Of a DNA stretch of 64,000 nt, positions 25,259-48,292 are shown one piece after another (the first letter of the stretch is position 1; each line of letters starts with the position of its first letter). Origin of the DNA: Candidatus Omnitrophota bacterium (lineage in GTDB: Bacteria > Omnitrophota > Gorgyraeia > Duberdicusellales > 4484-171); the NCBI GenBank assembly GCA_043815445.1, contig JBDRIY010000054.1:527-64526 (forward strand), given 5' to 3'. A program made the position numbers and the translations under genes. The notes under the pieces are model-generated. The model searched no databases. It saw only the letters and a program-made list of their open reading frames with translations, and was not told where the DNA came from.

Positions 25259-26497
25259 ATGTTTATCAGCTCAATTATTCAGAAATTTATTCTTGGCTAT
25301 ATTTTACTTTTTCCCCTTCTGCCGGCATTGACTTCTGAAAGAATAAACTTGGCGGTTAATTTAATTTTTTTATGCTTAGGAACAGTTTATGTATTTATTT
25401 TACGCGAAAATATTAAAAAAAGCCTGCTAAATCCCATAATCATACTTTTTTTCTCAATTCTTATATTTTCAGCATTCTTCTCCCATGGTATAGCTGCTGG
25501 CTTAGAACAAGCCTATCGCTGGCTTCCTTTTCTCATTCTATTTTATATAGTAAAAGTTTCTAATGAAGATAAGAAAAAATGGCTGTTACGAATACTGCTT
25601 CTAAGCGCTTGCTTAGTTTCCCTTTACAGCCTGCGGGCTTTTTTTATTATATCAGGATATATTTCTTCCTATCTTCAACAACACAATATAAATTACTATT
25701 TTGCTCAAGAATTCTTAGCCCGAAAAAGAGCCTTTGCCCCTTTTATTACCCCTAACCTGCTGGCAGGATATCTAACAATGGTAATATTTATTGCCGTAGG
25801 AATATTTTTAAAAAATAAACATAAAACCGACAGGCTAATAGCGCTTAGTTGTTTAACCCTATCTTTACCTGTATTTTTCCTTACTAAATCTATCGGCGGA
25901 TGGCTTTCAATGCTTTCAGCTCTATGTTTCTTTCTGTTTTTTAATAAAAAAATAAACCCCGTTAGAGATAGCTCATTTTTAAATAAATATAAAATCTCTA
26001 ACGGGGTAAATAAAAAAGTTACTGTTTCTATTCTTATGGCTATTTTAATCCTAACTATAATCTTTATCGCAAGAGTTAAGGAGGCGCGGGAGATAACTGC
26101 TCCCTTATTTTCCTTGCAGCAAAGAATTTCCTATTGGGCTCAAACTATTGAAATAATTAAACAGCACCCTTTAATCGGAGTAGGCGCGGGAAACCTTTCA
26201 TTAAAAGGTTCTCTAAGCTCTCACAACTCCTACCTTCAAATCTGGGCTGAAACAGGAATAGCGGGGCTAATAGGCTGGCTGGCAATTGTTTTCATCTTTA
26301 TAAAAAGAAGTGTAGGAGTGCTTCAATATTCAAAAAGAAAGGCTTTTTGGGCCGGAACTTTTTGCGCGGGTTTATCGTTTCTATTCCACAACTTAATAGA
26401 TTTTTCCTTTTTTATTCCCCAAGCAGCCTTTTTATGGTGGATAGTTTTAGCTCTGGCAACGGCAAGCCCTACCCCTGCCAGCTCCGATAATCATTAA
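25259..26497 (+). CDS. O-antigen ligase / Wzy-like polymerase family membrane protein
   Basis: ~11 TM helices and an H-N-x-Y-L-Q-x-W-A-E-x-G Wzy_C-type periplasmic-loop motif (HNSYLQIWAETGIAG). Confidence 0.65.
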   Translation: MFISSIIQKFILGYILLFPLLPALTSERINLAVNLIFLCLGTVYVFILRENIKKSLLNPIIILFFSILIFSAFFSHGIAAGLEQAYRWLPFLILFYIVKVSNEDKKKWLLRILLLSACLVSLYSLRAFFIISGYISSYLQQHNINYYFAQEFLARKRAFAPFITPNLLAGYLTMVIFIAVGIFLKNKHKTDRLIALSCLTLSLPVFFLTKSIGGWLSMLSALCFFLFFNKKINPVRDSSFLNKYKISNGVNKKVTVSILMAILILTIIFIARVKEAREITAPLFSLQQRISYWAQTIEIIKQHPLIGVGAGNLSLKGSLSSHNSYLQIWAETGIAGLIGWLAIVFIFIKRSVGVLQYSKRKAFWAGTFCAGLSFLFHNLIDFSFFIPQAAFLWWIVLALATASPTPASSDNH

Positions 26498-28608: not shown

Positions 28609-30375
28609 TCAGGCGCTGGCGCTATTATGCGACAGTGCCTCTATTTGCCCGGCAAATAACTCTGAAAATTCCCGAACTTCCGCTATGAGCTTTCGGGGAG
28701 CGCCGGCAAGAATATTATTTGGGCTTTTTAAAAAATAAACTGAATCACAGGCCATTATTGTTGATAATCTATGAGAAACAACTATTACAATATCTATAGG
28801 CAAGCTCCGTATATTGCTCATTATTTTTTCCTCGCTGTAAGAATCCATAGAAGACATTGCTTCGTCCAAAATTAAAATTTTAGGTTTATTTATTAAAGCT
28901 CTGGCAATAGCAATTTTTTGCTTTTGGCCTTCAGAAAGTTTACAAGCATTTTCACCGATAACTGTCTCATACCCTTGAGGTAAACTCTTAACAAACTCAT
29001 CTACGCCGGCTAAAGCCGCGGTTTCAACTACTTCATTTCTTGAAGCGTTTTTTTTAGCGTACTTAATATTATTCTCTATACTATCATTCCATAAAAACGG
29101 CTCTTGTAGGGCTACGCTGATTTGCTGTTTTAAAAAAACCTTATCTAATTCTTCTATATTGCGCCCCTGAATAAGCACCTTGCCTTTGCCCGGTTTATAT
29201 ATGCCTAAGATTAAATTTAAAATTGTAGTCTTACCGCACCCGGAAAGTCCGGCTAAAGAAATAACTCCTTTTTCTAAATTAAATTCTATATCCCTTAAAA
29301 CATCTTCCCCTTCACAATAACCAAAACGGACTTTTTTAAACTCTATTCGAGGATTATCAAATATTATTCTTACCTTTGGTTTACCTATTTCAGGCGCCAG
29401 CGAATTTTCTTGCAAAACTTCATTTAAACGGTTGCAGGAAACAAGCCCCATCACTACTCTTTGAAAAAAGAAAGCAACACTGTTTTGTAAGCCAATTAAC
29501 TGGCCTAAATAAATCATTATTGCCGCTAAAGTTCCGGCTGTCATCTGCTCTTTTATCACTAAATAACCGCCGAAAAGAGTAATTAAACCTATAATTATCC
29601 GTTCACAGCTTCCTCCGGCAAAACTGCCAAAAACCTCCAGCCGAACATTTCTTAACCTTATTTTTATCCGGGCAATCAACGCCTTTAAATAACTCCTTGT
29701 TTCCGCTTTTTCTTTTCCCAAGGCTTTGACTAAATGAATATGAGAAAACACCTCTTCCATACGCTTAAAAATATCCTGAGAATTAGTCAATAATTCTTCT
29801 AATATTTTACGCATCCTAAAAGTAACATAATGAACCGGCAAATACATAATCGGCGCCAGAACAAGAGCAAAAAGCGCCATTTGCCAATTAAGATAAAAGA
29901 TAATTGCCAGAATAAAAAGCATTCTGGGAAAAATTTTAATAATTTCCTCGGGAATAGAAACAACCAAATCCACGACTCTATCTATATCATAGTTAACCCT
30001 AAACATATGCTCGCCGGTTGACCTATTTTGAAAAAAATTAAGAGGAAGGTTTTGCAAATGGCTGAATACTTTTTTATTTAAATCAAAATTTACTCTTAGA
30101 TTAACGCTTCTTTTAAACAAAGCTGACACCGCGTTAACAAGGCCGTTAATAATAAATAACCCTGTACCGATTGCCCCAAAAATAATAAAACTCTTTAACT
30201 CCTTGCCTATTATCCCCTTATCTACCGCCAACTTGCTAAGATAAGGCAGAGCTACCCCCAGCAAAACACTTACCCCGCTTAAAAAAAGTATAATAATTCC
30301 TTTTTTACGGTAAGGCAGGAGATATTTTAAGAATTTGAGGAATAACCTGAATTCTTGTTTGTTTATTTTTTTCAT
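28609..30375 (-). CDS. ABC exporter (fused permease + ATPase), candidate peptide exporter
   Basis: Six TM helices, Walker A GLSGCGKTT, LSEGQKQKIAIARAL, ILILDEA. Immediately downstream of the PqqD/HprK/rSAM operon. Confidence 0.8.
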   Translation of the reverse strand: MKKINKQEFRLFLKFLKYLLPYRKKGIIILFLSGVSVLLGVALPYLSKLAVDKGIIGKELKSFIIFGAIGTGLFIINGLVNAVSALFKRSVNLRVNFDLNKKVFSHLQNLPLNFFQNRSTGEHMFRVNYDIDRVVDLVVSIPEEIIKIFPRMLFILAIIFYLNWQMALFALVLAPIMYLPVHYVTFRMRKILEELLTNSQDIFKRMEEVFSHIHLVKALGKEKAETRSYLKALIARIKIRLRNVRLEVFGSFAGGSCERIIIGLITLFGGYLVIKEQMTAGTLAAIMIYLGQLIGLQNSVAFFFQRVVMGLVSCNRLNEVLQENSLAPEIGKPKVRIIFDNPRIEFKKVRFGYCEGEDVLRDIEFNLEKGVISLAGLSGCGKTTILNLILGIYKPGKGKVLIQGRNIEELDKVFLKQQISVALQEPFLWNDSIENNIKYAKKNASRNEVVETAALAGVDEFVKSLPQGYETVIGENACKLSEGQKQKIAIARALINKPKILILDEAMSSMDSYSEEKIMSNIRSLPIDIVIVVSHRLSTIMACDSVYFLKSPNNILAGAPRKLIAEVREFSELFAGQIEALSHNSASA

Positions 30376-30531: not shown

Positions 30532-30813
30532 TTATTTAATCGCCTTTATTTCTTTTAGGTCTTTGAGGAATTTTTTCATTTCTTTTTCAGCTTCTTCTTC
30601 AGTAGTATCAAACTTTTCTAAAACTATTTTTTTGATTGCGGCAAGGCTTTTTTTGCCATCAATTAGCTTCCAAACCTCTGACGCTACCTTATTCAAGGTA
30701 TAAATACAATTTATCTCATCCGAGGTTTTATAAATAGGCATTAAAATAGTTTCATCATCAATTACCCTTGTAACCATATCCGGATTTTTGCGTAAAACTC
30801 CCGCTTTTGCCAT
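30532..30813 (-). CDS. PqqD-family protein (RiPP recognition element-like peptide chaperone)
   Basis: 93 aa. ETILMPIYKTSDEINCIYTLNKVASEVWKLIDGKKSLAAIKKIVLEKFDTTEEEAEKEMKKFLKDLKEIKAI fits the PqqD pattern (LN..a..IW.l.DG...l.eI...l...y ... FL..L). Confidence 0.75.
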   Translation of the reverse strand: MAKAGVLRKNPDMVTRVIDDETILMPIYKTSDEINCIYTLNKVASEVWKLIDGKKSLAAIKKIVLEKFDTTEEEAEKEMKKFLKDLKEIKAIK

Positions 30814-30888
30814 AATTCTACCCTCCTTTTCTAAGCTATCTCTTTGTCATTATCCGGCTTGACCGGATAATCCAGAACCTTTCAATCC

Positions 30889-31857
30889 CTATACTCTCCT
30901 AACAAAATCAATCACTTTTTTATCATTCACAAACCCCATACTATAACAAGGCACCGCGCTGATTAAATCCTGGCAAAAAGATACAATATTTTCTAAACAC
31001 TGCTTATCCCAAAAAGTAGGAAAAAGCGCGGGATATAGTTTGTTAAAGGCTTCCTTTTTAGAAATTTTCTCCACAATATTTTTTTTGGCGTGGCGAATAA
31101 AGAATAATTTTTTCAAAGGCGCTGAATCTATTCGCGAAGTAAGGTAATCGTTAAAATCACCATGCCAGGGAGAACCGTGAATGGAAAAGCCTTTTCTATC
31201 CTTACGCACAATAATACGATCATCATTCAAAACCATTGCCTTTGTATGTTTATGCCAAATTCGGGCTGTAGTGCTTTTCCCAGCTCCGGATTCACCGGCA
31301 AAAACCAAGCCTTGCCCGTTTAAATCCTTTATCCCAATAGCATGGGTAAAAATCCCTTCCCGCCTTTGAGCAAAATAATTTATTAACAATACCTGTAAAA
31401 AATCATAGATAATATCTCCGGTGCTCCAAACAAATCCTTTGTTTTTTTTAAATAACTCCCGATCTTCTTCTCCAAACATATCTTTTTCTTTTTTAGGCAG
31501 AATAAAAGCTTCTATTTTATCAAAACTTTTGTTTACAAACATTATCTGCTTTTTATCTTCAAGAGGGCTTTTATAAATATAACTATCACCTTTTTTAAGC
31601 AAACGCCAGTTTTCGCTTCCATCCTGAAAATGATAAGTAACAAACAGAGGTTTTGCCTTAAAAACTTGAGGTAATTTATCCACTATTTCTATATCAATTA
31701 AGATATCAGTTTTTTTCTTTCCCTGATAAAAAAAATTATCAAACCTTTCTTCTATTTGAAGCTCTTTCTCTATCTTTGTGAATTGCTTAAGAGGAAACCG
31801 GCTTTGCATTTGAATAACTACGTCCGCAATTTTTAATTTAATTGTTGCTTTTTTCAT
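30889..31857 (-). CDS. HPr kinase/phosphorylase-related P-loop kinase (HprK C-terminal-domain-like)
   Basis: GLVFAGESGAGKSTTARIW aligns to the HprK Walker A (GvLitGdSGvGKSetAL). Size and context resemble the HprK-like kinases found in peptide-modification clusters. Confidence 0.65.
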   Translation of the reverse strand: MKKATIKLKIADVVIQMQSRFPLKQFTKIEKELQIEERFDNFFYQGKKKTDILIDIEIVDKLPQVFKAKPLFVTYHFQDGSENWRLLKKGDSYIYKSPLEDKKQIMFVNKSFDKIEAFILPKKEKDMFGEEDRELFKKNKGFVWSTGDIIYDFLQVLLINYFAQRREGIFTHAIGIKDLNGQGLVFAGESGAGKSTTARIWHKHTKAMVLNDDRIIVRKDRKGFSIHGSPWHGDFNDYLTSRIDSAPLKKLFFIRHAKKNIVEKISKKEAFNKLYPALFPTFWDKQCLENIVSFCQDLISAVPCYSMGFVNDKKVIDFVRRV

Positions 31858-31907: not shown

Positions 31908-33074
31908 CTATATGAATTCTTTAATACGCTTTTGCGCTGTTTTTGCCAACTCACAAAAATATTCTACTTCCTTATGCATATCTCCTGTCTCAAGATAAGC
32001 TTTGCCCGGGCACAATAAACAAAAATCAATCATATCACAGTTATAACACTTAGAATCCGTCTTGATCTTTACTCCGGCTATATTTTGAAATACAGAAAAC
32101 ATTTTTCTTATATCTTCCGGCTCTGCCTTTAATAAATCTATCCCTGGCTCGCGAATACAAGAACACATAAACATCTTCCCGTAAGGATCAATATTAACCC
32201 CGTCTAAACTGCCTGCCGCGCACCTAAAAAGCCTTTTATCACTAATAGTATTTTTCGTCATTCCTACGCCACTTTCATCATTCCCATATTTTTTGTCATT
32301 CCCGCGTTCCCTTTTGTCATTGCCCGGCTTGACCGGGCAATCCAGAAACATATTAATTCCGCCTTCGTCTTCTTCCACGCTTTGGACTTCAAACAACTTA
32401 TCTAATTCTACAATCTGTTCAGGCTTAAGCCGCAGACTGCACGGCGTGGTATCGCCGTCTAACCCCGCCTGCAATAATAAACCAGGCCTGAATTCCAAAC
32501 CTCTACTCTCCAAAAATTCTTTTATTTTCGGCAATTCTTCTAAATTCTGCTGAGTTGCCATAGTCTTTACTTTTAAGGGCAGATTTCTTTTTAAAATCAT
32601 ATCTAAACCTGCCATTGCCTTTTTATATGAACCTTTAACCCTAGTTATATTTTCATAAGTATTCTTGGTTACACCGTTAATAGTTATTTCAATGGCAAAA
32701 GGAGGCCTTTTTGCTAAATAGTCCGCGGCTTGTTCCGTTAAAGAATATCCTGTAGTAAATATAGTTATCAAAAAACCTTTATCTTTAGCATACTCATATA
32801 TTTCTAAAAAATCGTTTCTTTCTAAAGGGTCTCCGCCGGTAAAACAAAGCCAGATAACACCTAATTTATATATTTTATCAATGATAAGCTTAATCTGTTC
32901 AGTATTTAACTCTTTTTTAATATAAGAAGGCTTATTGTAACAATCACAATAACAATGCCCACAATGCAGGCCGCACTTAAAAGTAAGCTCAAACTGACAA
33001 ACATTCTGCTTACTAATCCGCCAGTTTTTTTTATGAGTATTTAAACTAAAATCCTTATATTGAATTGTCTTCAC
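31908..33074 (-). CDS. radical SAM / SPASM-domain peptide-modifying enzyme (paralog B)
   Basis: CGLHCGHCYC (CxxxCxxC), GGDPL, C-terminal Cys-rich SPASM block (CAAGS...CSCI...CYNC...CLLCPG). Contains a low-complexity insertion. Confidence 0.85.
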   Translation of the reverse strand: MKTIQYKDFSLNTHKKNWRISKQNVCQFELTFKCGLHCGHCYCDCYNKPSYIKKELNTEQIKLIIDKIYKLGVIWLCFTGGDPLERNDFLEIYEYAKDKGFLITIFTTGYSLTEQAADYLAKRPPFAIEITINGVTKNTYENITRVKGSYKKAMAGLDMILKRNLPLKVKTMATQQNLEELPKIKEFLESRGLEFRPGLLLQAGLDGDTTPCSLRLKPEQIVELDKLFEVQSVEEDEGGINMFLDCPVKPGNDKRERGNDKKYGNDESGVGMTKNTISDKRLFRCAAGSLDGVNIDPYGKMFMCSCIREPGIDLLKAEPEDIRKMFSVFQNIAGVKIKTDSKCYNCDMIDFCLLCPGKAYLETGDMHKEVEYFCELAKTAQKRIKEFI

Positions 33075-33075
33075 T

Positions 33076-34179
33076 TTAAACCTTTAATGATAGTGACTCT
33101 GCTTTACGTTTACTTTCCGAATCACAACTTGTAAAATCTTTATTATTAAGCCAAGCCTTAGCAGGGCACCACTTGCAATAATCTTCTAATTCACACTCCG
33201 AACATTGATAATTGTCATCAGGCTTTATATCTTTTACCGCCTTTTTCATCTTATCCCAGGCGCTTCTTAAACCCATTTTCAATATATTATATTTTAAATA
33301 ATCAATCATCAAACACATTTTTAATTCACCAAAAGGCGTAATAGCCGCCTGAGCCTGCCCCACCCCGCATTTAAAAAGACTATTCACGCTGCAAGCCGCA
33401 GGCTGCAGGCTACAGGCTTCTCCCCTTTCTCTTCCCTCTCTCTTGCTCCCTTCCTCATTGCTAACTGCTAATTGATAATTGCTAATTGATAATTCCCCCT
33501 TCTCCGTTCCCCCTTCATCCTTCGTTAACACCCCTCTATACTCAAACGGCTCCCTTGAACCGTCTAATCGCGGCAGAAGCATATCATCTAAACGGTGCAA
33601 CGCGCCTAATGAAGCGGCAAAATCTTGTATCTTTTTTATTTCCTTTTCATTTTCTTTTAAAACACAAGTTTTAAATCCCAAGCTAACCTCATTTTTACGT
33701 AAAAGTTCTATTGCCTTAAATACTTTATCCCTTGAACCGTTTGCTCCGCTAATAAGCTCAAACGCTTTTTTACTCATCCCGGGAATTGTAATATCCACTT
33801 TATTCGGACGCAGGCTCCCGAGTTGAGCCGCGATTTTCGCGTTAATCAAAGAACCATTGGTATAAATAATAATCTCGAAACCGGATTTCTTAGCATAACT
33901 AAGAATTTTTATTATATCCTTCCTCATAAAGGGCTCGCCTCCAGTAAACCCTAAATAAAAACAGCCTAAGTCTTTCAATTGGTCTAAAATAATACATATC
34001 TCTTTTGTCTTAAGCTCTTTTTTCTTATTTTTGTAACTCTGCGGAACATAACAATGCCGGCATTTAAAATTACACTCATAAGTCAACTCAAACATCACCC
34101 GTAAAGGAAAAAGTTTCTCGCGCGCCTGTTTATGCAATTTCGCGTAAAATTCCTGATTAATGTCGGTTTTTATCGCCAT
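33076..34179 (-). CDS. radical SAM / SPASM-domain peptide-modifying enzyme (paralog A)
   Basis: CNFKCRHCY, GGEPF, SPASM Cys block (CGVGQ...CLMI...CSEC...CKWCPA). Ends 2 nt before the paralog B start. Low-complexity insertion at the equivalent position. Confidence 0.85.
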   Translation of the reverse strand: MAIKTDINQEFYAKLHKQAREKLFPLRVMFELTYECNFKCRHCYVPQSYKNKKKELKTKEICIILDQLKDLGCFYLGFTGGEPFMRKDIIKILSYAKKSGFEIIIYTNGSLINAKIAAQLGSLRPNKVDITIPGMSKKAFELISGANGSRDKVFKAIELLRKNEVSLGFKTCVLKENEKEIKKIQDFAASLGALHRLDDMLLPRLDGSREPFEYRGVLTKDEGGTEKGELSISNYQLAVSNEEGSKREGRERGEACSLQPAACSVNSLFKCGVGQAQAAITPFGELKMCLMIDYLKYNILKMGLRSAWDKMKKAVKDIKPDDNYQCSECELEDYCKWCPAKAWLNNKDFTSCDSESKRKAESLSLKV

Positions 34180-34308
34180 TATTTTCCTAAATCATTTACG
34201 TCTGAAGCGATTATCTAAAATTAGCTTCCCTGCCCTAAAAATTCATACAACAGAACCACAAAGAATAAGTTTTAAAAAATGGCGCAATCAAGCATTTTAT
34301 GCCTATTG

Positions 34309-36922: not shown

Positions 36923-38068
36923 TTAATGCCGGTTTTCATCGCCATTTTTCTGTTTATTTTCTAACTCTTCATTTAACGCCCGCGCTAATTCGCAATAATA
37001 AGGAACTGGGGCTTCTTCATCGCCTGTTTCTAAATAGGCTCTGGCCGGGCAGTGATAACAAAGCGCGCGTAACTTACAATCCCTGCATTTTGAGTCAGTT
37101 TTAAATTTCTCGCTTAATAATTTAGGAAATGCTTTATAAAACCCTTCCGCGAACGATACTTTCTTTAAATCCACGCTAAACTTATCAGAAAAAGCGCAAA
37201 ACTTAAGCCGGCCATAAGGATTAATAAAAAACTGGCTCATCCAGGCATTACAGCGGTAAAGAAATTGCCTGTCTCTCTCTAAATCAGGAAAATCATTGTC
37301 TAATCCTTTTTGATACTGCTTCCAAATATCAGAATCCTGCTTTTTCGCCTCTATCAATTCTTGGGCAGAAAGCCTATACTGACAAGGAGTTTTATCTCCA
37401 TTAAACCGGGGGTATATCATTGGATCATATTTAAAATAGTATTTATTCTTTGCCGGTTTTCCCAGAAGTTCTTCAGTAAATTCTTTTATCTTACCGACTT
37501 CATTTTTATTCTGCTTAAGACAATTTGTTTTTAGTATTAAGGGGAGTTTTTTCTTTGCTAATAATTTAACAGTTCTCATCACCTTAGAAAAAGAGCCCTG
37601 AACCTGAGTAATCGCTTCATAAGTTCTTTGGGTTATGCCATTTAAGGTAATTTCTATAGAACAAGGCGGGGATTTAACCAGATAAGAAATGATTTCTTTT
37701 GTAAATTTTTGGCCATTGGTAAAAACAGTTATAATAAATCCTTTTTCTTTAGCATAAGCGTATATCTCTAAAAAATCCTTTCTGATTAAAGGGTCTCCGC
37801 CGGTAAGAGCCAGCCAAAGGCATCCTTGCTTGTGAATTTCATCAAGAATTGTCTTCCATTGCTTTGCGGTTAATTCTTCACCCCTATTTTCGCTCCCTTT
37901 GCAGTAGCAGTGGCCGCAGTTCAAATTGCAGCGATAGGTAAGCTCAATATGCGCGCTCCAAGGATAATGTTCTTTCTTGTTTTGCAGTTTATTATAAAAA
38001 CGGCCGGAGTTTTGAACTTTCATATAAAAAGTTTTTCCTTTATAGACAAACTTAATCTGCGCGCCCAA
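36923..38068 (-). CDS. radical SAM / SPASM-domain peptide-modifying enzyme (paralog C), directly downstream of precursor peptide 1
   Basis: CNLNCGHCYC, GGDPL, SPASM Cys block (CNAW...CAFS...CRDC...CYHCPA). No low-complexity insertion. Confidence 0.85.
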   Translation of the reverse strand: MGAQIKFVYKGKTFYMKVQNSGRFYNKLQNKKEHYPWSAHIELTYRCNLNCGHCYCKGSENRGEELTAKQWKTILDEIHKQGCLWLALTGGDPLIRKDFLEIYAYAKEKGFIITVFTNGQKFTKEIISYLVKSPPCSIEITLNGITQRTYEAITQVQGSFSKVMRTVKLLAKKKLPLILKTNCLKQNKNEVGKIKEFTEELLGKPAKNKYYFKYDPMIYPRFNGDKTPCQYRLSAQELIEAKKQDSDIWKQYQKGLDNDFPDLERDRQFLYRCNAWMSQFFINPYGRLKFCAFSDKFSVDLKKVSFAEGFYKAFPKLLSEKFKTDSKCRDCKLRALCYHCPARAYLETGDEEAPVPYYCELARALNEELENKQKNGDENRH

Positions 38069-38116: not shown

Positions 38117-38326
38117 TTAAGAATTAGCGGATGTCAGCGACCAGTTATTACTGTTCCCTCTATGGCCCTTCCCACTGTAACATATATCGGCCCGTAGAGG
38201 CCAGTTAGTCTCACCCCTAAGCGGGTAGATTTTACCAAGATCCCAACAATCGCACATTAGCACCGCCTGTTCCGCATTAAGTTTTACCCGTGTAATTTCC
38301 GGCTTAAATTTTGGTTTTCTAAGCAT
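38117..38326 (-). CDS. candidate RiPP precursor peptide 1 (69 aa from Met17 of the ORF-track entry)
   Basis: MLRKPKFKPEITRVKLNAEQAVLMCDCWD leader shared with two other peptides. Core has 1 further Cys and ends ...TSANS. AGGAGG lies 7 nt upstream of the ATG. Confidence 0.6.
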   Translation of the reverse strand: MLRKPKFKPEITRVKLNAEQAVLMCDCWDLGKIYPLRGETNWPLRADICYSGKGHRGNSNNWSLTSANS

Positions 38327-38366: not shown

Positions 38367-39965
38367 CTACTCAATTATAAATATCTGAATTGCTTCAAGG
38401 CCGTTAGGGTAATAAATCGTTTTGATTGGGACTTTATGAGAATATTCTTTTTTAAAAGAAACATATTTATAAATAAACAAATCACCCCAATAATCCTGAG
38501 AATGAGATTCCGGCGCCCAAAGAACATAAATTCTTTTTTTTTGTTCTTTTTCGCCTTGAACTAAACGAAAATCATAATATTTATCTATTTTGCCTTTTTC
38601 CCAAAGGTAATAATTAAGGTAAAAATCCGTTGTCATTCTGCTATCTTGAATTATAACATAATCTTTAATGTTATCCAATTGGCTTAAATATTCCCCGGCC
38701 TCTTGACAGCCATAACTATTATGCCGGCACTGGCCTAAATCCAGAGGCGCGGCGTAACAAAACTTTGTCCATTGCACTGCCTCCGTAATTATTAAACTAA
38801 AGCAAAATGTACCCGTAATAATCAAAATGAACGCTTTTGTAAAGCCTTGTTTTTGCAAGCCATAGTTAAATATCTGCGCAATGAACTTAGCAATTAAAAT
38901 TATTATCGGCGGCAAAATAATAAGAGCGTATCTTGGCTGAAAAAAATTCACTCCGCCTAAAACTCCTATCAACCCTAAAATCAGCCAGGTTAAAAGAATT
39001 TTATCCGCTGTTTTCCTTTGAAAAAAAGAAGTAATACAAGAGGTGAATAAAAGAAAAAATGCTATTGGGTGAGCTAATAATGGCGCTTTCAAAGCCTTGC
39101 CGTAAAGCAAAGATGAGCTTTTAAAGTTAAAAAACAACTCTTTAAAGGTAAATAACGTATTATTTTTAATATTTACCCAAATATTAGCAAATAAATTACC
39201 TTTAAAAATGTTTTCCTGATACGCGCGGTAGAAACTTTGCCCGAATTCATCTCCCCTTATCATACTTTTATAGATAAAAGGCAAGCTGAATAAACCCGCG
39301 ATTAATAATAAAATAACAGTTATCTTGGAATTTAAAAGATATCTCGCATCTTTTTTAGCCCATATTAACGATATAAAAAATATAGGGGCAAAAAGGGCCG
39401 CGGACTCATAACTTACTAAAGATTTTTGCATAAAAAAACAAGATAATATAAACCATAGCCCAATCCCTATTTTTTCTTTATTCTCAATTGCTTTAAAAGC
39501 CTTGAACAAACTTAAAAAAATTAAACAGCCGAAAAAAGGAACCCAAATTACCCTGCCCATAATCCGGCTATGAATTAAATGCCAGGGAAGAAAACATAGC
39601 AAAAGTGAAGATATTAGAGCTGTTTTACGGCCATACATACACTTTGCTAATATATACAGCAATACAACTGTCCCCGCCCCTATGATTATCGGCTCAAAGC
39701 GGCAATGAATCATAAAATTGTTTAGGGTAAATACTTCCGGCGAAGATATACGTGAAATCAAAAAAAAACGCAGAGAATAGGGGATAAAAAAAATTATAGG
39801 TATACCTATGATTTCTTTAATTAATTCCGGCCAGATCAGTAAAATCCTTGCCCAATTAGCTTCATCATGATTTACGGGCAACATCTTTATATTATAAAAT
39901 CTTATAATAAACGCGCCGATGAAAATAACAATAATTAATAAAATATCCGGCAGTAATCGCTTCAT
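38367..39965 (-). CDS. GT-C-fold membrane glycosyltransferase (PMT/ArnT-like), paralog 1, 40 nt upstream of peptide 1
   Basis: Multi-TM. First-loop acidic motif NHDEANWAR. PMT_2-like block LLCFLPWHLIHSRIMGRVIWVPFF. ~150 aa C-terminal soluble domain. Start set at MKRLLPDILL by homology to the paralog (ORF-track start 40010). Confidence 0.55.
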   Translation of the reverse strand: MKRLLPDILLIIVIFIGAFIIRFYNIKMLPVNHDEANWARILLIWPELIKEIIGIPIIFFIPYSLRFFLISRISSPEVFTLNNFMIHCRFEPIIIGAGTVVLLYILAKCMYGRKTALISSLLLCFLPWHLIHSRIMGRVIWVPFFGCLIFLSLFKAFKAIENKEKIGIGLWFILSCFFMQKSLVSYESAALFAPIFFISLIWAKKDARYLLNSKITVILLLIAGLFSLPFIYKSMIRGDEFGQSFYRAYQENIFKGNLFANIWVNIKNNTLFTFKELFFNFKSSSLLYGKALKAPLLAHPIAFFLLFTSCITSFFQRKTADKILLTWLILGLIGVLGGVNFFQPRYALIILPPIIILIAKFIAQIFNYGLQKQGFTKAFILIITGTFCFSLIITEAVQWTKFCYAAPLDLGQCRHNSYGCQEAGEYLSQLDNIKDYVIIQDSRMTTDFYLNYYLWEKGKIDKYYDFRLVQGEKEQKKRIYVLWAPESHSQDYWGDLFIYKYVSFKKEYSHKVPIKTIYYPNGLEAIQIFIIE

Positions 39966-40140
39966 TTTTTTATGAAACTTTAACTTTCCCATTTTTCGCG
40001 CAGTCCTCAAAGGGTGCTACATTCTTCAATTATCCAAAATTATAAATTCCTGTTTTTACATAATGGCAGCTATAGGGAAAAATGCCTGTGGACGCCTGTC
40101 AACCGATAAACTATAATTAATGTAGATTACAAAGATTAAA

Positions 40141-41547
40141 CTATTCAATGCTATTCTTATTTCTTCTAAACTTAACTCCGCGAATAATCTTATCTGCCTC
40201 TTTATTAAATAACTTTATTTTTCCTGCTTTTTTGTAACATTTCATAAGAGCAAGGCTAACGCGATTATCATTCAAATTCATTTCTTTTGCTTTTATCAAT
40301 GCTTCTATAGCTTTTTTATAATGCCTTAAAGCCTCATAACAAAGGCCTAAAATTAGATAGGCTTTGCCCCCTTTGTAATTTAATTTGAAAACCCTTCTTA
40401 TATTTTTAATAGCTTCCTTATGTTTATGTAACTTCAAATATGCCTCACCAAGTTTTAAATAAGCTAAAATTTTATTCCCATCATCACAAGCGCTCTTTAA
40501 TTCATTTTTATATATTCTTATGGCTTTTCTTTCATCGCCTTTATCTCTTTTAATCGAATTATTCCTTTTTATTAAGACTGCTTTCTTAAATAATGATTCA
40601 CAATAACCGCAGGTATCGCATTTTAAATTACAATTAAGCATTTTCTTAAAAAAATAATTTTTAACCAGAATATCATAATCTATATATTCAAAATAAGAAA
40701 GGCCCGGACAGTCCAGTATTTCCAAAAGATTACCTCTAAAATGTTTACTAATATAAGCCTTGAGGCATAATTCAATTCTCTTTGTAGAAAAAACTCTCGT
40801 TGATAACTTATAATGATTTACAAATTTATCATAACAATCTAATGCGTCTGGCGGTATAAAAGGTACACGGAATACTTTTAAGGAGTTTTTTAAATATACT
40901 TCAATGCAAAATTTATCAGGAAAAACACCTTCTATGATTTTTCCTCGAGATTTTTCTCTATGTGATAAATAATTATAATGATTAACCCTATAAGGACAGT
41001 TGCCCAAACAACCCTCATTAAGCATTACTCGTATTTGAAGGCCGGTTCTCTTCTTTATCTCTTTTATTAAATTAATACTACGATTTATATCCCTATCAAT
41101 GGTTAATACATCTACGCCTAAATCTTTAAGATATAAGGCATGCTCAACGGTTTTCATATAACAGTTAACGGACGACTCTATTATTATACCGCTAATTTCC
41201 TTTTTGATTTTACTAATATAAATAGGGTTCGTAACTACCACAGAGCTAAGCCCTTTATCTCTCAATCTTTTTACATAATCCAATATATTATTAAAAAAAG
41301 TTCCGCTTAATCCAATAACGCCTTCACAGGTCGCGTTTAATAAAAGCTGTGGCCTGATATTTAAAGTATTACATTTTCTTATAATTTTCGGAATCTGTCT
41401 TGTATATGACTTTGGCTCCTGTTGATCCCTTCCAGAACCCAAATATAGCTGCGGTATAGGAAAATAAAAAGCTTCTATATTATCCTTATATGCGCCAATA
41501 AGGTCTAACATTTTAATATCATAGTTATATCCTATAGAGAATTTCAT
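40141..41547 (-). CDS. peptidase-U32-family protein (collagenase-like TIM barrel, Cys cluster) with C-terminal TPR repeats
   Basis: IEAFYFPIPQLYLGSGR ... VVVTNPIYI ... SVNCYM ... IRVMLNEGCLGNCPYRVNHYNYLS follows the U32 block order. CDTCGYCE, then TPR-like helices. Confidence 0.55.
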   Translation of the reverse strand: MKFSIGYNYDIKMLDLIGAYKDNIEAFYFPIPQLYLGSGRDQQEPKSYTRQIPKIIRKCNTLNIRPQLLLNATCEGVIGLSGTFFNNILDYVKRLRDKGLSSVVVTNPIYISKIKKEISGIIIESSVNCYMKTVEHALYLKDLGVDVLTIDRDINRSINLIKEIKKRTGLQIRVMLNEGCLGNCPYRVNHYNYLSHREKSRGKIIEGVFPDKFCIEVYLKNSLKVFRVPFIPPDALDCYDKFVNHYKLSTRVFSTKRIELCLKAYISKHFRGNLLEILDCPGLSYFEYIDYDILVKNYFFKKMLNCNLKCDTCGYCESLFKKAVLIKRNNSIKRDKGDERKAIRIYKNELKSACDDGNKILAYLKLGEAYLKLHKHKEAIKNIRRVFKLNYKGGKAYLILGLCYEALRHYKKAIEALIKAKEMNLNDNRVSLALMKCYKKAGKIKLFNKEADKIIRGVKFRRNKNSIE

Positions 41548-41565: not shown

Positions 41566-41790
41566 TTATGAATTTGAACATCTAGCAGTGCAGTTCTCTT
41601 GGGTAGGTCCAGGCACAGATCTGCAGTATCCGCTTCCCTTTGACGTACAAATCTTCTCCATCCCATCGACAGTACGGAGAGCACCGCCGTCAAGCCAGCC
41701 ATCATCGTAACAGTCACAACTTAATACTGCTTGTTCAATATTAAGTTTTACTTTTGTTATTTCCAGCTTAAATTTTAGTTTTTTAGGCAT
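41566..41790 (-). CDS. candidate RiPP precursor peptide 2
   Basis: MPKKLKFKLEITKVKLNIEQAVLSCDCYD leader. Core has 4 further Cys and ends CSNS. AGGAGGTG RBS. Confidence 0.6.
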   Translation of the reverse strand: MPKKLKFKLEITKVKLNIEQAVLSCDCYDDGWLDGGALRTVDGMEKICTSKGSGYCRSVPGPTQENCTARCSNS

Positions 41791-42048: not shown

Positions 42049-42255
42049 TTAAGATGTGTGACAAGATGAATCGCACTGCGTCCTCCTCGTCATCGTACGA
42101 GTAGCCGGATCGCACACCATTAAATTTGGCAGTCTCGCACGATGTGAACTTCCCTCCCTGCCACTCCATTGGTAACAACCGCAATATAACACTGCCTGCT
42201 CCACTTTGAGTTTTATCTGTATAATTTCCGGCTTAAATTTTAGCTTTCTAAACAC
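42049..42255 (-). CDS. candidate RiPP precursor peptide 3
   Basis: MFRKLKFKPEIIQIKLKVEQAVLYCGCYQW leader. Core has 3 further Cys and ends SCHTS. GGGAGGT RBS. Confidence 0.6.
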   Translation of the reverse strand: MFRKLKFKPEIIQIKLKVEQAVLYCGCYQWSGREGSSHRARLPNLMVCDPATRTMTRRTQCDSSCHTS

Positions 42256-42289: not shown

Positions 42290-43894
42290 TTATCTAAGTA
42301 TAAATATCTGAATTGCCTCAAGCCTATTGGGGTAATAAATAGTTTTGATTGGCCTTTCATCTGGATATTCTTTTTTAAAAAAATTAAACTGCCGAGCAAA
42401 TAAACCGCCCCAATAATCCTGATGATGAGATTCCGGGGCCCAAAGAACATAAATTCTTTTTTTTTGTTCTTTTTCGCCTTGAACTAAACGAAAATAATAA
42501 TATTTATCTATTTTTCCTTTTTCCCAAAGGTAATAATTAAGGTAAAAATCCGTTGTCATTCTGCTATCTTGAATTATAACATAATCTTTAATATCATCCA
42601 ACTGGCTTAAATACTCCGCGGCCTGTTGACAGCCATAACTGTTATGCCGGCACTGATTTAAATCCAAAGACGCGGCATAACAAAATCTTGTCCATTGCGT
42701 CATCTCAGTAACGATTAAACTAAAACAAAGCGCGCCCGCGGTAATCAGGATAAACGCTCTCCTAATTCCTTGTTTTTGGAAACTATAACTAAACATTTGA
42801 GAAATAAATTTAGCGACAATAATTACCATCGGCGGTAAAATAATAAGGACGTATCTTGGTTGGAAAAAACTCACTCCGCTTAGAACTCCCGCAAACCCTA
42901 AAATCAGCCAAATTAAAAGAAGCTTATCCGCTGTTTTCCTTTGGAAAAAAGAAATAATACAAGATACAGTTAGAAGAAAAAATACTATCGGGTGCGCCAG
43001 TAAAGGAGCTTTTAATGCCCGGCCGTAAAGCAAAGATGAACTTTTAAAGTTAAAGAATAAATCTTTGAAGGCAAAGGCAGTATTATTTGTAATATTTGCC
43101 CAAATGTTAGCGAATAGGTTGCTTGTAAAGATATTCACCTGATACCCGCGGTAAAAGTCTCTCCAAAATTTATCTCCTATTGTTATAATTTTATAAATAA
43201 AAGGCAGGATAAATAAAGAAACAATTAGCAATAATGCAATGCCTGTTTTGGGGCTTAAAAAGCTTTTTCTTTCTCCCATAATCCAAAATAATGACACAAA
43301 AAGTATCGGAATAAAAATAATCGCGGATTCATAGCTTGTCAAAGACCCTTGCAGAGAAAAACAAGATAGCAAAAACCATAATCCGGCCCATATTTTTTCT
43401 TTATTCTTGATTGCCTGCAAGGCTTTAAATAAACTTAAAAAAATCAAACAGCCAAAAAAGGGAATCCAGATCACCCTGCCCATAGTCCTGCTATGAATTA
43501 AATGCCAAGGAAGAAAGCATAATAAAAGTGAAGATATAAGGGCTGTTGGACGGCCATACATATATCTTGCCAATATATATAACAATACAACTGTGGCCGC
43601 CCCTATGATTATTGGTTCAAAACGGCAATGGACTATAAAGTTATTTAGGGTAAATGTTTCCGGCACAGATACGCGCAGAGCTAAAAAAACCCGTAAAAAA
43701 TAAGGTAGAAAGGGAAAGGAAATTACAGGAATACCTATAATTTCCTTAATAAATTCCGGCCTTTTCAGCAAAAACCTTGCCCAATTCGCTTCATCATGAT
43801 TTATAGGTAGTATTTCTATATTGTAAAATCTTATAATAAACGCGCCGATAAAAATACTAGTAATTAATAAAATATCCGGCAGCGATCGCTTCAT
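42290..43894 (-). CDS. GT-C-fold membrane glycosyltransferase (PMT/ArnT-like), paralog 2, 34 nt upstream of peptide 3
   Basis: ~75-80% identical to paralog 1 by eye. Same NHDEANWAR and PWHLIHSR blocks. Confidence 0.55.
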   Translation of the reverse strand: MKRSLPDILLITSIFIGAFIIRFYNIEILPINHDEANWARFLLKRPEFIKEIIGIPVISFPFLPYFLRVFLALRVSVPETFTLNNFIVHCRFEPIIIGAATVVLLYILARYMYGRPTALISSLLLCFLPWHLIHSRTMGRVIWIPFFGCLIFLSLFKALQAIKNKEKIWAGLWFLLSCFSLQGSLTSYESAIIFIPILFVSLFWIMGERKSFLSPKTGIALLLIVSLFILPFIYKIITIGDKFWRDFYRGYQVNIFTSNLFANIWANITNNTAFAFKDLFFNFKSSSLLYGRALKAPLLAHPIVFFLLTVSCIISFFQRKTADKLLLIWLILGFAGVLSGVSFFQPRYVLIILPPMVIIVAKFISQMFSYSFQKQGIRRAFILITAGALCFSLIVTEMTQWTRFCYAASLDLNQCRHNSYGCQQAAEYLSQLDDIKDYVIIQDSRMTTDFYLNYYLWEKGKIDKYYYFRLVQGEKEQKKRIYVLWAPESHHQDYWGGLFARQFNFFKKEYPDERPIKTIYYPNRLEAIQIFILR

Positions 43895-44158: not shown

Positions 44159-44362
44159 AATATTGTAAAAAGAACTAAGCTGAATTATGACTCGGAAAGC
44201 GATGTGCTTTATATTAATTTTGATCAGCCTCAATCTGCTGATGACAGCGATATCACTGACGAAGGAGTAATTATTCGCCTCAGGGAAAATAAAATTGTCG
44301 GGCTGACTATTCTTAATGCCGCTAAGGCGCTGGTAAGTCATCCTAAACATAAACACTCCTAA
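44147..44362 (+). CDS. DUF2283-like small protein (putative antitoxin-type partner)
   Basis: 71 aa. KLNYDSESDVLYINFDQP...EGVIIRLRENKIVGLTILNA matches the DUF2283 pattern (Y D xxx D xLYI). Confidence 0.5.
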   Translation: MAQINIVKRTKLNYDSESDVLYINFDQPQSADDSDITDEGVIIRLRENKIVGLTILNAAKALVSHPKHKHS

Positions 44363-45843
44363 CTCGCGCTAAACCGGGGATATAAAATTCTCAACTTTTC
44401 CTCTATAATCATCATTTTCTTCTCAATTTTATACAACCCCCTATCTCTTCCATTTTTCTTCTGCCGCAGTCTTTTTGTTTTCAAAAATCCTTTTTTAAAT
44501 TCCTGATATCTATCGCTTATATATTGAATAAGCTCAAATTTGTTTTTAAGATATGGCAAAACCTTGAAAAGCCGCGATAGAACTTCTAGATTACTATAGC
44601 CTGTTCTAATAGCATCCTTATAAAAACCAGCGGCATCATCATATTTTTCTTCATACTCAAAGACGTGGCCTAAAAAATAATAGCTTTGCGCTTGTAAAGG
44701 TTCCAAAGCGCAGTATCGCAGTAACAATTTCTTGGCCTTATTAAAATTTTTTAAATTAAACTCTGTTTTTGCCAGTCCAAACATACTTTCTTTTTGGGCC
44801 TTACTAAATAAACTATCTTTTGTTAAATTTAAAGGTAAAGAAAAATATTTTTTTGCTTTTTTGAAATCTTTTCTTTCTAAAGCAATATTACCTACGCCCC
44901 ATAGTGAGGCTGGATTTTTAGGGTCAACCCGCAATATTTTCAAGAATTCCTTTTCAGCAAGGATAAACTTTCTTAAGGATAAATAAAGCGGGCCGTAATT
45001 ATTATCTTCCGCCCTATAACCGGAATTTATTTCTACTGCTTTACGATAATACTCTTTCTTTCCTGTGGAATAAAAAAGGTTAAAATATTCAGCGGCCTTA
45101 GTATTAATCGAATATCTTTTTTTAAACTTCTCGGGAAAAAAATAATAAGCGATTTCATCCCCTAAATGTTTATATTTCATTGGGGTATAACCGCCATTTA
45201 CTGAATAAGCAATGGTAGTAACTACAGGCCGCCGGACTTTGTCTTTAAGGATATTTACCAATTCCTGAGGTAGAATCCAAGGCCGCCTTTTGCCTATTTT
45301 TATGGTATTATTCGCGTTTAAAAGGCTGTCCACAACTAAAAAATCCGTATCGATGTCCAATAGAATAGGCTGTTCTAAGAATGGTAATTTATCCAACACA
45401 CAAACAATAAACTTTCTTCCTAAAATTTCAGCTGACGCCCAACCGTCTTTTACTATGAGAGATTTTTTATTCTCTTTTTTTATGAAATTTTTGAGGCTAT
45501 TCTTAACAATTTTTAAGGACATTTTAAATTCCTTTAATTCGCCGGGGATAACCCAATAAAAATTCTTAACAATACCTTCTTGAATTGCTGGATAAATATA
45601 ATTTCCGATATTAGTTTGCTTATCAAAGTTTTTTTCATAACGTGTAAAAGCAAGGCTGTATTCTAAATTTCTTTTTAACTCCCGCAAACTTTTTGCCTGG
45701 CTAAATACCTCTTTTATTGGTTTTGCTGGACAAAAACCAAAGTCCATATGAGCGTCAATGTGCACTAAATCAAGGTTTTTAACCCCTCTTTTCCGCCATA
45801 CCGCTAATGCTTGATCGTGATCTTCAATAATATTAATATCCAC
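44359..45843 (-). CDS. protein with arginase/deacetylase-fold-like N-domain (LVHIDAHMDFG) and C-terminal TPR repeats
   Basis: D-A-H-x-D metal-site-like motif. TPR-like helices in the last 200 aa. Confidence 0.35.
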   Translation of the reverse strand: MDINIIEDHDQALAVWRKRGVKNLDLVHIDAHMDFGFCPAKPIKEVFSQAKSLRELKRNLEYSLAFTRYEKNFDKQTNIGNYIYPAIQEGIVKNFYWVIPGELKEFKMSLKIVKNSLKNFIKKENKKSLIVKDGWASAEILGRKFIVCVLDKLPFLEQPILLDIDTDFLVVDSLLNANNTIKIGKRRPWILPQELVNILKDKVRRPVVTTIAYSVNGGYTPMKYKHLGDEIAYYFFPEKFKKRYSINTKAAEYFNLFYSTGKKEYYRKAVEINSGYRAEDNNYGPLYLSLRKFILAEKEFLKILRVDPKNPASLWGVGNIALERKDFKKAKKYFSLPLNLTKDSLFSKAQKESMFGLAKTEFNLKNFNKAKKLLLRYCALEPLQAQSYYFLGHVFEYEEKYDDAAGFYKDAIRTGYSNLEVLSRLFKVLPYLKNKFELIQYISDRYQEFKKGFLKTKRLRQKKNGRDRGLYKIEKKMMIIEEKLRILYPRFSAS

Positions 45844-46706: not shown

Positions 46707-48292
46707 TCAGTGTATAAAAAATTTATATATTTTAGCTCCTGAACTAACTAAAGGAGCAATTATGCTAATAAACCGGTTAATAAGCCTTGTCTTAACGCTC
46801 TCAAAACTAATTATTTTTTTATTTTTTATAATACCCATAACCTTACCTAAAAACATTTCCTCAGGGACAAGCTGAGCCGCTGATATAGAATTATCTCCAC
46901 GAATATAAAACAACTGTTTATTGCCTTGTTTACTTTTTTTACCAGGCGGTGGCAAACCTTTTGATTATCTTCCTGATATAAAATAATATCTCCTATTTTC
47001 AAACTTTCAGGCAAAATCTTTTTAATTATAAGCTTTTGACCTTGTTTTATGAACGGCCACATACTAAAGCCAGATGTTTCGAAAAAGGATAAATCATTGT
47101 CTAAATCTTTTTCTTTAGCTTTAAACGCTTTAACATTGGCTGTGAACGAGCTTATTACTTTAAAAAACATATAAAATAGGCGGCTTTTATAGAAAAAGTT
47201 AGCTTTTCGGCTATAAGCGTTAAGGCCGTAATAATTAGCAAATTGTTCCTGAGGAATGTTTAAAATATAATTTGCCGGCTCTTTAAACGTATCGTATAAC
47301 AAAAAATGCGATTTAAGATAAAGTTTTTTACGTTGAGTTTGCGCGTCCGGTAAAAAAGTGTATTTTTCTATAAAATTTTGAATTAATTTCTTTTTATATT
47401 TAGAAACATTCAATTCTTTCATCAAACGCTGATAAAAATTCAGGCCGCTAAGAAATTCTACCTGATAAAGAATAAAAAATAAAGCTGAGCAAAGCTCATA
47501 TTTCTTGCTGACATTTAGACAGTATTCCCAATCAAAAGTTTTTTCATACTTATTCAATAATAACGCGGCATCATAAACGTTTTTTAAGGATAATACCTTA
47601 CCAAATCTTCGCGCGTGCAAGGCTAAGCTAAAAAGAGTATCTTCCGGCGAAAGTAGTTTTATCGCCCTGCCTTCTCTATTAACTTCTCGAACCCTGTCCC
47701 AAATTTCCGGCAATATCGCCCTGCCTTTTCGCTTAAAATCAATACCCCAGTGAAGTTCAGTAACACATAATTTATTTTCTTTTTTAAAAACAAAAGTAAT
47801 ATGGCACTGATCTTGTTTCCAATATTCTTCAGTAAAACCGCCTAACTGTTTCTTATACCCTGCATCATATAATATTGACGCCCCCTTTTCAACATCCCCC
47901 TCTTTAACCAAAAAATCTATATCCGTCATCAGCCGCAAAGGCATCCGGATATATATATCCTCAAGCAATGCCGCGCCTTTAAGAGGTAAAAGCATAACTT
48001 CTGCCTGCTCAAAAGCAGTTAATATCCGCAAAAACTCCTGCCGGATACCTTGACAACGAACCAAAGCGCAATAATGGTTATTTTTCAAAAACTCTATTAA
48101 ATCCAAAGGCAACAACGAGCTAAAATCCTTAACTAAAGAATAAACAAAAGGCGTTAATTCATGATAATTAATAAACTCTTTAAATCTTTCCCAATTGATA
48201 GATTGAGAGTTCAATAATGTTTCAATATTATCTTCTTCTACACCAACTAATTTTCTGACAACAGCTTTAATAAACTCTATTTCAGGAATCAT
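46707..48292 (-). pseudogene. PF14907-type nucleotidyltransferase fused to an S24/S26-like peptidase domain, split by a frameshift in an A7/T7 run (~46932..46938)
   Basis: N-terminus LLPLKGAALLEDIYIRMPLRLMTDIDFLV (NTP_transf_5-like). The C-terminus of the 481-aa ORF has GFSMWPF ... IGDIILY ... CHRLVKKV. The overlapping 82-aa ORF continues YIRGDNSISAAQLVPEEMFLGKV (signal-peptidase boxes D and E). Confidence 0.5.

Follow-up and report, generated by a model that had tools for sequence, protein, structure and literature searches.

In the 64,000-nucleotide stretch of the Candidatus Omnitrophota contig JBDRIY010000054.1 analyzed here (the window), a gene for a 322-amino-acid (aa) kinase homologue of the ScmC family lies beside a gene for a 93-aa PqqD-type protein. 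We consider it probable, by comparison with characterized systems, that this pair belongs to a cassette for the maturation of a peptide made by ribosomes and modified posttranslationally (a RiPP) and that the ScmC homologue phosphorylates the C-terminal Ser or Thr of the precursor. An original prediction, made from the letters of this stretch, had proposed phosphorylation of a C-terminal Ser as a tailoring step outside a lasso-peptide context. That proposal now appears well supported by comparison, and the linear polyphosphorylated peptides (LPPs) of Bacillota (PMC13381572) already set a precedent for phosphorylation of peptides other than lasso peptides.

Both members of the pair were located exactly where the original prediction had placed them: a putative P-loop kinase of the HprK/phosphoenolpyruvate carboxykinase (PEPCK) fold at 30889..31857 (-), identified from the open reading frame (ORF) listing and Pfam family PF27840, and a discrete PqqD-type peptide-recognition protein at 30532..30813 (-), which scores 52.1 bits against Pfam PqqD (cut-off, 23.4). 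The latter also gives subthreshold matches to the NCBIfam models for PqqD, ScmD (TIGR04248, 32.7 bits; cut-off, 100), and the lasso PqqD chaperone. By sequence it is a PqqD-type RiPP recognition element (RRE) and is predicted to bind the precursor leader. The predicted collinearity with two radical S-adenosylmethionine (SAM) genes, A and B, likewise held. The minus-strand order is radical SAM protein A (367 aa, 33076..34179), radical SAM protein B (388 aa, 31908..33074), the ScmC gene, the PqqD gene, and an MsbA/HlyB-like ABC exporter (588 aa, 28609..30375), with gaps of 50 and 75 nucleotides (nt) before the two members of the pair. Protein A and the exporter were assigned by Pfam and NCBIfam scans; protein B carries Pfam Radical_SAM and Fer4_12 and has subthreshold NCBIfam matches to SPASM maturases. 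Each of the two radical SAM proteins ends in a CxxCx5CxxC arrangement that looks SPASM-like by eye, and the NCBIfam models ScmE (TIGR04250) and ScmF (TIGR04251) reach at best 90.7 and 77.9 bits, respectively, each against a cut-off of 400. A third radical SAM/SPASM protein, C (381 aa, 36923..38068 [-]), is encoded directly downstream of the first precursor gene.

The three local precursor genes, found as ORFs and by tblastn, all lie on the minus strand and encode peptides of 69 aa counted from an ATG (38117..38326, MLRKPKFKPEITRVKLNAEQAVLMCDCW...TSANS), 74 aa (41566..41790, ending in ...ARCSNS), and 68 aa with a GTG start (42049..42255, ending in ...SSCHTS). They are paralogues by tblastn, with a common leader, M.(R/K)K.KFK.EI...KL..EQAVL.C.C, containing KFKPEITRVKLNxEQAVL, and unrelated cores. 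All three end in Ser, as originally noted, and this feature extends to the whole family. A hidden Markov model of the leader recovered 70 to 71 unique full-length peptides from the loci that we fetched, and another 63 precursors, all unnamed or annotated as hypothetical, came from searching 5.8 billion proteins with a profile; the precursors match no model in NCBIfam. Of the resulting 134 unique precursors, 124 end in Ser, 10 end in Thr, and none ends in any other residue. Since only 8.4% and 3.9% of the other ORFs in the same loci end in Ser and Thr, respectively, the terminal Ser is not a matter of chance. The cores themselves are hypervariable and mutually unalignable, with three Cys in 83 and four in 36 of the 134 precursors. 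Even the distant ScmC loci L063 and L067 (25 to 29% identity) encode WxxPx(M/I) peptides that end in Ser. The invariant C-terminal Ser/Thr offers a testable prediction of the phosphorylation site, and it also serves as a means of finding precursors.

Two leader types can be told apart, KFKPxITRVKLNPEQAVLxCxC in the Omnitrophota and Y-x-K-P-x-I/V-x-x-V-x-L...EEAVLxxCK in the smaller cassettes described below; the latter fits the YxxPx[I/V/L] recognition motif of lasso and LPP type, discrete lasso-type RREs being known to recognize [Y/W]xxPx[L/V/I] (PMC13381572). The only family members without a terminal Ser/Thr are truncated copies with an intact leader and a premature stop (L005:4615-4734, L009:1051-1146, L009:2540-2692, L019:8917-9051, L022:3362-3496, and L020:6946-7056), which look like decaying paralogues. 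A YxxPxI candidate near the kinase gene of locus L018 ends in Ile; we did not count it as an exception, as the canonical Ser-ending peptide P0287 is recorded on an Omnitrophica contig equal in length (74,033 bases) to that of L018, which may be the same contig. One orphan precursor-like gene (L071:7001-7228, P0334, ending in ...APPS) has no cassette genes in the available 9.6 kb.

The kinase homologue itself is a member of the ScmC family, as judged from its sequence, rather than a canonical HprK. An identical protein (P0001) is annotated as hypothetical in a Candidatus Omnitrophota metagenome-assembled genome, and Pfam ScmC (PF27840) is precomputed on P0001 and on nearly all of the 120 homologues listed, in some cases with a "weak" flag; this membership is a precomputed annotation rather than a score of our own, and the name ScmC comes from context look-ups. 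The homologue search gave 643 matches, the best 120 of which show 58 to 72% identity; those with a named source are Omnitrophota, and one is labeled only "bacterium." An exhaustive search of 1.84 billion cluster representatives found 8121 relatives at an E value of ≤0.001 and 2913 at ≤1e-10, so the protein is part of a large superfamily. The NCBIfam models for ScmC (TIGR04249, 32.1 bits; cut-off, 125) and HprK-related kinase B (TIGR04355, 29.2 bits; cut-off, 200) stay well below their cut-offs. By the curated NCBIfam cut-offs, the system does not belong to the HprK-related kinase A/B systems. Single-sequence and profile searches of the PDB gave only P-loop noise, with HprK at E values of 0.1 to 0.6, and the link to HprK therefore required profile alignment and a fold search. 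An AlphaFold2 model built with 21 homologues (pLDDT, 84.6; pTM, 0.86) has a β-rich N-terminal domain and a C-terminal domain with the P-loop. Foldseek searches of the PDB with this model retrieved ATP-PEPCK best (E value, 9e-8) and the HPr kinase/phosphorylase (HprK/P) structures 1ko7, 1knx, and 1kkl at 2e-4 to 4e-4. HprK/P belongs to the PEPCK-like fold class, and the modeled protein is predicted to have a fold of this PEPCK/HprK type.

Alignment also locates the putative active site. With hhalign, residues 177 to 230 of the ScmC-family profile were matched to residues 144 to 196 of the Lactobacillus casei HprK/P sequence of PDB entry 1jb1 (E value, 3.4e-6), which pairs Lys194 with Lys161 and Asp212/Asp213 with Asp178/Asp179. 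The P-loop GESGAGKST spans G188 to T196 of the protein (encoded at 31270-31296 [-]), and His172, Lys194, Asp212, and Asp213 are encoded within 31219-31344. Among 134 kinase representatives of at most 50% mutual identity, His172, Gly193, Lys194, and Thr196 are conserved in 100% and Asp212 and Trp231 in 99%; at position 213, all representatives have Asp or Glu. The predicted catalytic tetrad is thus essentially invariant in the ScmC family, which thereby carries the His-Lys-Asp-Asp motif of the lasso-peptide tailoring kinases. A lack of catalytic residues, which would have spoken against the original prediction, is not observed. These kinases need the same set of residues (PMC9266682), and PsmK with the changes D158A/D159A is inactive (PMC6993621).

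The genes that accompany the kinase homologue are those of peptide maturation. We compared 63 loci from species-level genomes and several metagenome contigs, labeling their ORFs with the proteins of the window, and counted gene presence in the 31 loci flanked by no less than 4 kb on each side. PqqD and radical SAM genes are each present in 30/31, a precursor gene in 28/31, NTP_transf_5 in 23/31, a signal peptidase I (SpI)-like protease in 21/31, and an ABC exporter in 19/31. The expectation that the homologues would be linked to peptide genes was thereby borne out; a Pfam scan of the window's ORFs from 13027 to 63947 showed no HPr or phosphotransferase system (PTS) gene, nor did the related loci with genes listed. 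The absence of a lasso cyclase and a B2 protease was confirmed within ~15 kb by Pfam and NCBIfam scans. Two architectures recur. In Omnitrophota and Elusimicrobiota, the order is NTP_transf_5, UPF0489/TPR, PqqD, precursor, radical SAM C, radical SAM A, ScmC, radical SAM B, ABC, and NTP_transf_5. A minimal cassette in Deltaproteobacteria, Aminicenantes, Nitrospirota, Nitrospinae, and others comprises PqqD, radical SAM, precursor, and ScmC, followed by an SpI-like protein and one or two NTP_transf_5 genes; its sole radical SAM gene is orthologous to that for protein C of the window. The ScmC gene is usually adjacent to or overlaps the precursor gene. PqqD is mostly found beside the precursor or a radical SAM gene and less often beside the kinase gene. 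The two proteins that were originally seen as a pair thus do share a cluster, but PqqD is not specifically paired with the kinase and is best seen as a leader-binding protein shared by the whole cluster.

Some loci depart from these layouts. In a Nitrospirota genome, a single 897-aa ORF (L062:10477-13167 [+]) joins an SpI-like peptidase, NTP_transf_5, and a Wza-type Poly_export domain; in another locus, a 1047-aa ASH/DUF1573 repeat protein lies between precursor and ScmC (L069:7177-10320 [+]); and the minimal cassettes of L068 to L070 and L074 are directly beside Wza/Wzc/Wzy genes. An unannotated 290-aa protein in L072 was tested as a hidden ScmC and rejected.

Beyond what had been predicted, the window contains a further part of the tailoring module, an NTP_transf_5 gene of the PsmN family (46847-48292; 137.9 bits against Pfam NTP_transf_5) fused to an archaeal-type SpI-like domain (partial match to sigpep_I_arch), together spanning 46707..48292 (-). 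A frameshift within a run of seven A (about 46932-46938) interrupts the peptidase domain and leaves its Ser/His part and its GDNS part in different frames; tblastn with the L003 and L001 homologues confirmed the two frames. The L001 and L069 orthologues are intact fusions, and the frameshift may stem from an error of assembly, mark a pseudogene, or be a slippery site.

With these components, the following pathway can be drawn, in which we infer every chemical step, the site of phosphorylation included, alongside the gene content, fold, tetrad, cassette conservation, and terminal Ser/Thr that are observed. The PqqD protein would bind the conserved leader and present the precursor to the remaining enzymes, and the radical SAM/SPASM enzymes would modify the Cys-containing core, which usually has three Cys. 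The ScmC homologue would then use ATP to phosphorylate the side-chain hydroxyl of the terminal Ser/Thr, possibly several times. NTP_transf_5 may decorate the phosphate, for example with a hexose as PsmN does, the SpI-like domain would cut off the leader, and the MsbA-like transporter would export the product. There is precedent for several of these steps. PadeK, ThcoK, and PsmK (poly)phosphorylate the C-terminal Ser of their precursors with little other sequence specificity, and this Ser is the conserved feature of their substrates (PMC9266682, PMC6993621). PsmN, an NTP_transf_5 protein, is needed for the addition of hexose to the pseudomycoidin phosphate (PMC6993621). Lasso RREs reportedly aid phosphorylation in some systems, and the LPP RRE presents the leader to the peptidase (PMC13381572). 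All five LPP components occur here together with radical SAM enzymes and a paeninodin-like terminal Ser, and the proposed pathway is the most economical reading.

Several observations weigh against it. The protein is far from canonical HprK and from the lasso kinases: it scores 16.0 bits against Pfam Hpr_kinase_C (PF07475; cut-off, 33.3; E value, 0.009), phmmer against PDB HprK gives an E value of only ~0.6, and its top structural matches are to PEPCK, not to HprK. The single alignment obtained places His172 one residue off His140 of HprK/P and outside the aligned block. The co-occurrence of genes is partly circular, as most loci were gathered via the kinase. Peptide-first look-ups reduce this circularity: of seven, five have ScmC adjacent to the peptide, one contig stops 6 kb past the peptide, and one peptide is an orphan. 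Finally, LppK phosphorylates Ser3 of the core rather than the C terminus and leaves an S3T variant unphosphorylated (PMC13381572), while 10/134 precursors (7%) end in the Thr that LppK rejects.

The Ser3 specificity of LppK (PMC13381572) also lends substance to the most credible of the alternatives, which we nevertheless regard as unlikely, namely that the kinase homologue phosphorylates another residue and that the terminal Ser/Thr is kept for radical SAM cross-linking or decarboxylation, as with mycofactocin, or for recognition by the protease or exporter. Other acceptors are present, as Ser and Thr make up 19.6% of core residues, and the radical SAM proteins match the mycofactocin maturase below threshold (E values, 1e-29 to 4e-33). 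The mycofactocin maturase acts on the C-terminal residues of its peptide. However, no further Ser/Thr position is conserved family-wide, the best leader column reaching 71%, and the interchange of Ser and Thr at the terminus points to the hydroxyl as the selected feature. Moreover, the substrates of paeninodin-type kinases carry the same C-terminal Ser signature (PMC9266682). A rather improbable variant retains the terminus as the site of modification and changes the chemistry: the Ser/Thr would be O-glycosylated directly from a lipid-linked glycan by a Wzy_C-type O-oligosaccharyltransferase or by PMT_2, and the ScmC substrate would be a sugar, a lipid carrier, or another protein. The surroundings give this idea its appeal, since PMT_2 genes precede the precursor genes of the window, a Pfam scan identified a Wzy_C gene at 25259-26497, the precursor gene directly adjoins a Wzy_C+TPR gene in L070 and L074 and is followed by a Wzy_C gene in L003, and the loci are set among glycosyltransferase and Wza/Wzc export genes. 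The fusion of SpI, NTP_transf_5, and Poly_export in L062 and the tolerance of a terminal Thr would fit as well. TfpO/PilO glycosylates the C-terminal Ser of the pilin of Pseudomonas aeruginosa 1244. Yet, besides the window, just 10 of the 74 loci that we fetched had Wzy_C-like ORFs, as opposed to 23/31 for NTP_transf_5 and 21/31 for SpI, PMT_2 relatives occur in few loci only, and it is the ScmC gene that mostly adjoins or overlaps the precursor gene. O-glycosylation is, in addition, compatible with prior phosphorylation, as in the phospho-glycosylation of pseudomycoidin.

It is also conceivable, but in our view very improbable, that the terminal phosphate is a transient leaving group on the way to a C-terminal dehydroalanine or dehydrobutyrine, followed by Cys addition or by hydrolysis to an amide. 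The conserved Cys, usually three per peptide, could serve such a reaction, and class II to IV lanthipeptides are known to form their dehydro-amino acids in this way, by phosphorylation and subsequent elimination. The neighbors that were scanned showed no domain of a lyase or lanthipeptide cyclase, however, and in the sole case studied, the partner NTP_transf_5 acts on a retained phosphate (PMC6993621). A housekeeping role, in which the protein would be a genuine HPr kinase/phosphorylase of carbon catabolite control with a coincidental peptide-gene neighborhood, can be considered excluded. Only the P-loop and the Asp-Asp resemblance speak for it; the subthreshold Hpr_kinase_C score counts against it as well, HPr/PTS genes were not found in the ORFs and loci surveyed, and the homologues at 58 to 72% identity (the best 120 of 643) share the same peptide cassette.

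Additional genes of the window may bear on the maturation or fate of the peptides. A protein with a UPF0489 N-terminal domain, similar to the peptide arginases FlmR/OhkR, and a TPR region is encoded at 44359..45843 (-) (NF052474, a weak 48.6 bits; cut-off, 350); this gene is common in the Omnitrophota version of the cluster, and its sequence suggests a possible conversion of Arg to Orn in the cores. A U32-peptidase-like TPR protein (40141..41547 [-]), just under the Pfam cut-off, is encoded between the precursor genes, and L003 and L072 have U32 genes as well. Immediately upstream of precursor 1 (38367..40010 [-]) and of precursors 3 and 2 (42290..43894 [-]) are two paralogous genes for PMT_2 (GT-C) membrane glycosyltransferases. 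The two paralogues are 75% identical, pointing to a duplicated PMT_2-precursor unit in which the precursor cores have since diverged past alignment. A third PMT_2 gene is located at 48934-50457.

The operon has apparently received insertions. An AbiE-type toxin-antitoxin pair (DUF6577/AbiEi-like, 36114-35383; AbiEii, 35358-34309) lies between a GxxExxY gene and the gene for radical SAM protein A, bounded by a 111-nt direct repeat (34154-34264 and 36317-36427, 85% identical) that copies the first nine codons of the latter gene (MAIKTDINQ) and the region upstream. The repeat looks like the footprint of the insertion of the AbiE pair. The GxxExxY gene, of the GxxExxY/PD-(D/E)XK_3 nuclease family (36461-36895 [-]), sits inside the operon between the genes for radical SAM proteins C and A and is probably a further selfish insertion. 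The glycosyltransferase region holds a MazE-like antitoxin gene (48586-48882 [-]) and a nucleotidyltransferase/HEPN pair of the MNT-HEPN toxin-antitoxin type (52841-53900 [+]). Upstream, the minus strand holds further modification genes, which may act on the peptides or on sugars; they encode two B12-binding radical SAM proteins (53926-55281 and 60717-62129), a GT2 protein (55923-57206), a radical SAM pair whose first member has a SPASM domain (57203-59570), and a methyltransferase (59571-60272). An AsnB-type amidotransferase (62145-63947 [-]; TIGR01536, 464 bits; cut-off, 267) was considered as a lasso cyclase and rejected, as it is 30 kb off and scores 223 bits against NF033535 (cut-off, 525). 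A ribonucleotide reductase large-subunit gene (15837-19430 [-]) encodes an intein that bears a LAGLIDADG homing-endonuclease domain.

Peptide kinases of the HprK-like kind, accompanied by NTP transferases, had been described solely in Bacillota and in a small number of proteobacterial lasso clusters, and in 2026 the combination was also described in linear phosphorylated peptides, as restricted to Bacillota. Here, the tailoring module would be coupled with radical SAM chemistry, in a large and unnamed family across candidate and anaerobic phyla, and the recurrent polysaccharide-export setting hints at a role at the cell surface, in organisms whose biochemistry is almost uncharted. We tentatively raise, while thinking it doubtful, the further idea of a new RiPP class, in which radical SAM enzymes cross-link the peptide and a glycan is attached through the phosphate on its C-terminal Ser/Thr. 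If so, the neighboring glycosyltransferase, Wzy, and Wza genes would provide for synthesis of the glycan, and the products would be ribosomal peptide-phospho-glycan conjugates acting as surface or capsule components or primers, distributed widely among Omnitrophota and several anaerobic phyla, with diversifying selection acting on their hypervariable peptide parts. The glycosyltransferase/Wzy/Wza/Wzc setting and the L062 fusion leave room for such a product.

Our literature searches found no paper describing this cassette and nothing relevant for SynChlorMet, ScmC, or HprK-related kinase, and two RRE-mining papers mention no kinases. Phospeptin, a phosphorylated RiPP (PMC9259500), was set aside because an HprK-like enzyme seems unlikely there, the sole mention of a kinase in the article being a reference on a lanthipeptide synthetase.

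Close parallels exist with the LPP clusters of Bacillota (LppA/K/B/S/D/N; Nat Commun 2026, PMC13381572), which together with paeninodins are described as restricted to that phylum. An HprK-like kinase, a discrete RRE, an archaeal-type SpI leader protease, an NTP transferase that is uncharacterized, and an MsbA-like exporter are all five found in the window, the SpI domain in frameshifted form. Shared as well are loci with one to three precursors, which combine a conserved N terminus with a hypervariable C-terminal part, an aromatic-x-x-Pro-x-aliphatic leader motif, and a setting within polysaccharide/glycosyltransferase loci that recalls the capsule-locus setting of LPPs. In contrast, the cassettes described here have one to three core radical SAM/SPASM enzymes (30/31 loci), where LPPs are linear and have no further class-defining cross-linking enzyme, and conserved core Cys, and they lack the LPP consensus YxxPxVLxHQxIxFETxxS and its Ser3 site; of this consensus, the minimal cassettes share only YxxPx[I/V], and the leaders of the window have F-K-P-E-I at this position. 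Their terminal residue is invariably Ser/Thr, their kinase is of the ScmC family, and their hosts are Omnitrophota, Elusimicrobiota, Deltaproteobacteria, Aminicenantes, and Nitrospirota.

Paeninodin and pseudomycoidin clusters likewise combine an HprK-like kinase with a His-Lys-Asp-Asp set (PadeK, ThcoK, and PsmK, likened by motif and description), precursors in which the C-terminal Ser is the single conserved core feature, a discrete PqqD-like RRE, an ABC exporter, and a partner NTP_transf_5 protein that in some cases forms a fusion with the leader protease. They differ in that the scanned neighbors here include neither a lasso cyclase, as judged by NF033535, nor a B2 transglutaminase-like protease; instead, radical SAM enzymes occur together with an SpI-like protease, Thr is also found at the C terminus, and the local kinase homologue is below the Hpr_kinase_C threshold. 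SynChlorMet systems resemble the window in having two PqqE-like radical SAM/SPASM proteins, a PqqD homologue, and a ScmC-type protein, which are consecutive here. The NCBIfam equivalogs ScmC/D/E/F all score far under their cut-offs, however, indicating a different, much larger branch, in which precursors are evident and NTP_transf_5 and SpI are added.

With HprK/P (1jb1, 1ko7), the protein shares a PEPCK-like P-loop fold, as modeled, and an alignable Walker A Lys and Asp-Asp metal site, but it has another N-terminal domain, no recognizable LEIRGLG loop, no link to HPr/PTS, and a score below the Pfam threshold. The combination of a PqqD-type chaperone, a SPASM radical SAM enzyme, and a short precursor is also that of mycofactocin and pyrroloquinoline quinone (PQQ), and the mycofactocin precursor has a functionally critical C-terminal residue. 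Those systems, in contrast, are without a kinase, an NTP transferase, and SpI, their precursors are highly conserved, and the sequences described here fall below their NCBIfam models. Judged from its sequences, the system is best regarded as a case in which the known phospho-(glyco-)tailoring module was recruited to radical SAM RiPPs, with a terminal Ser/Thr rule that extends across the family.

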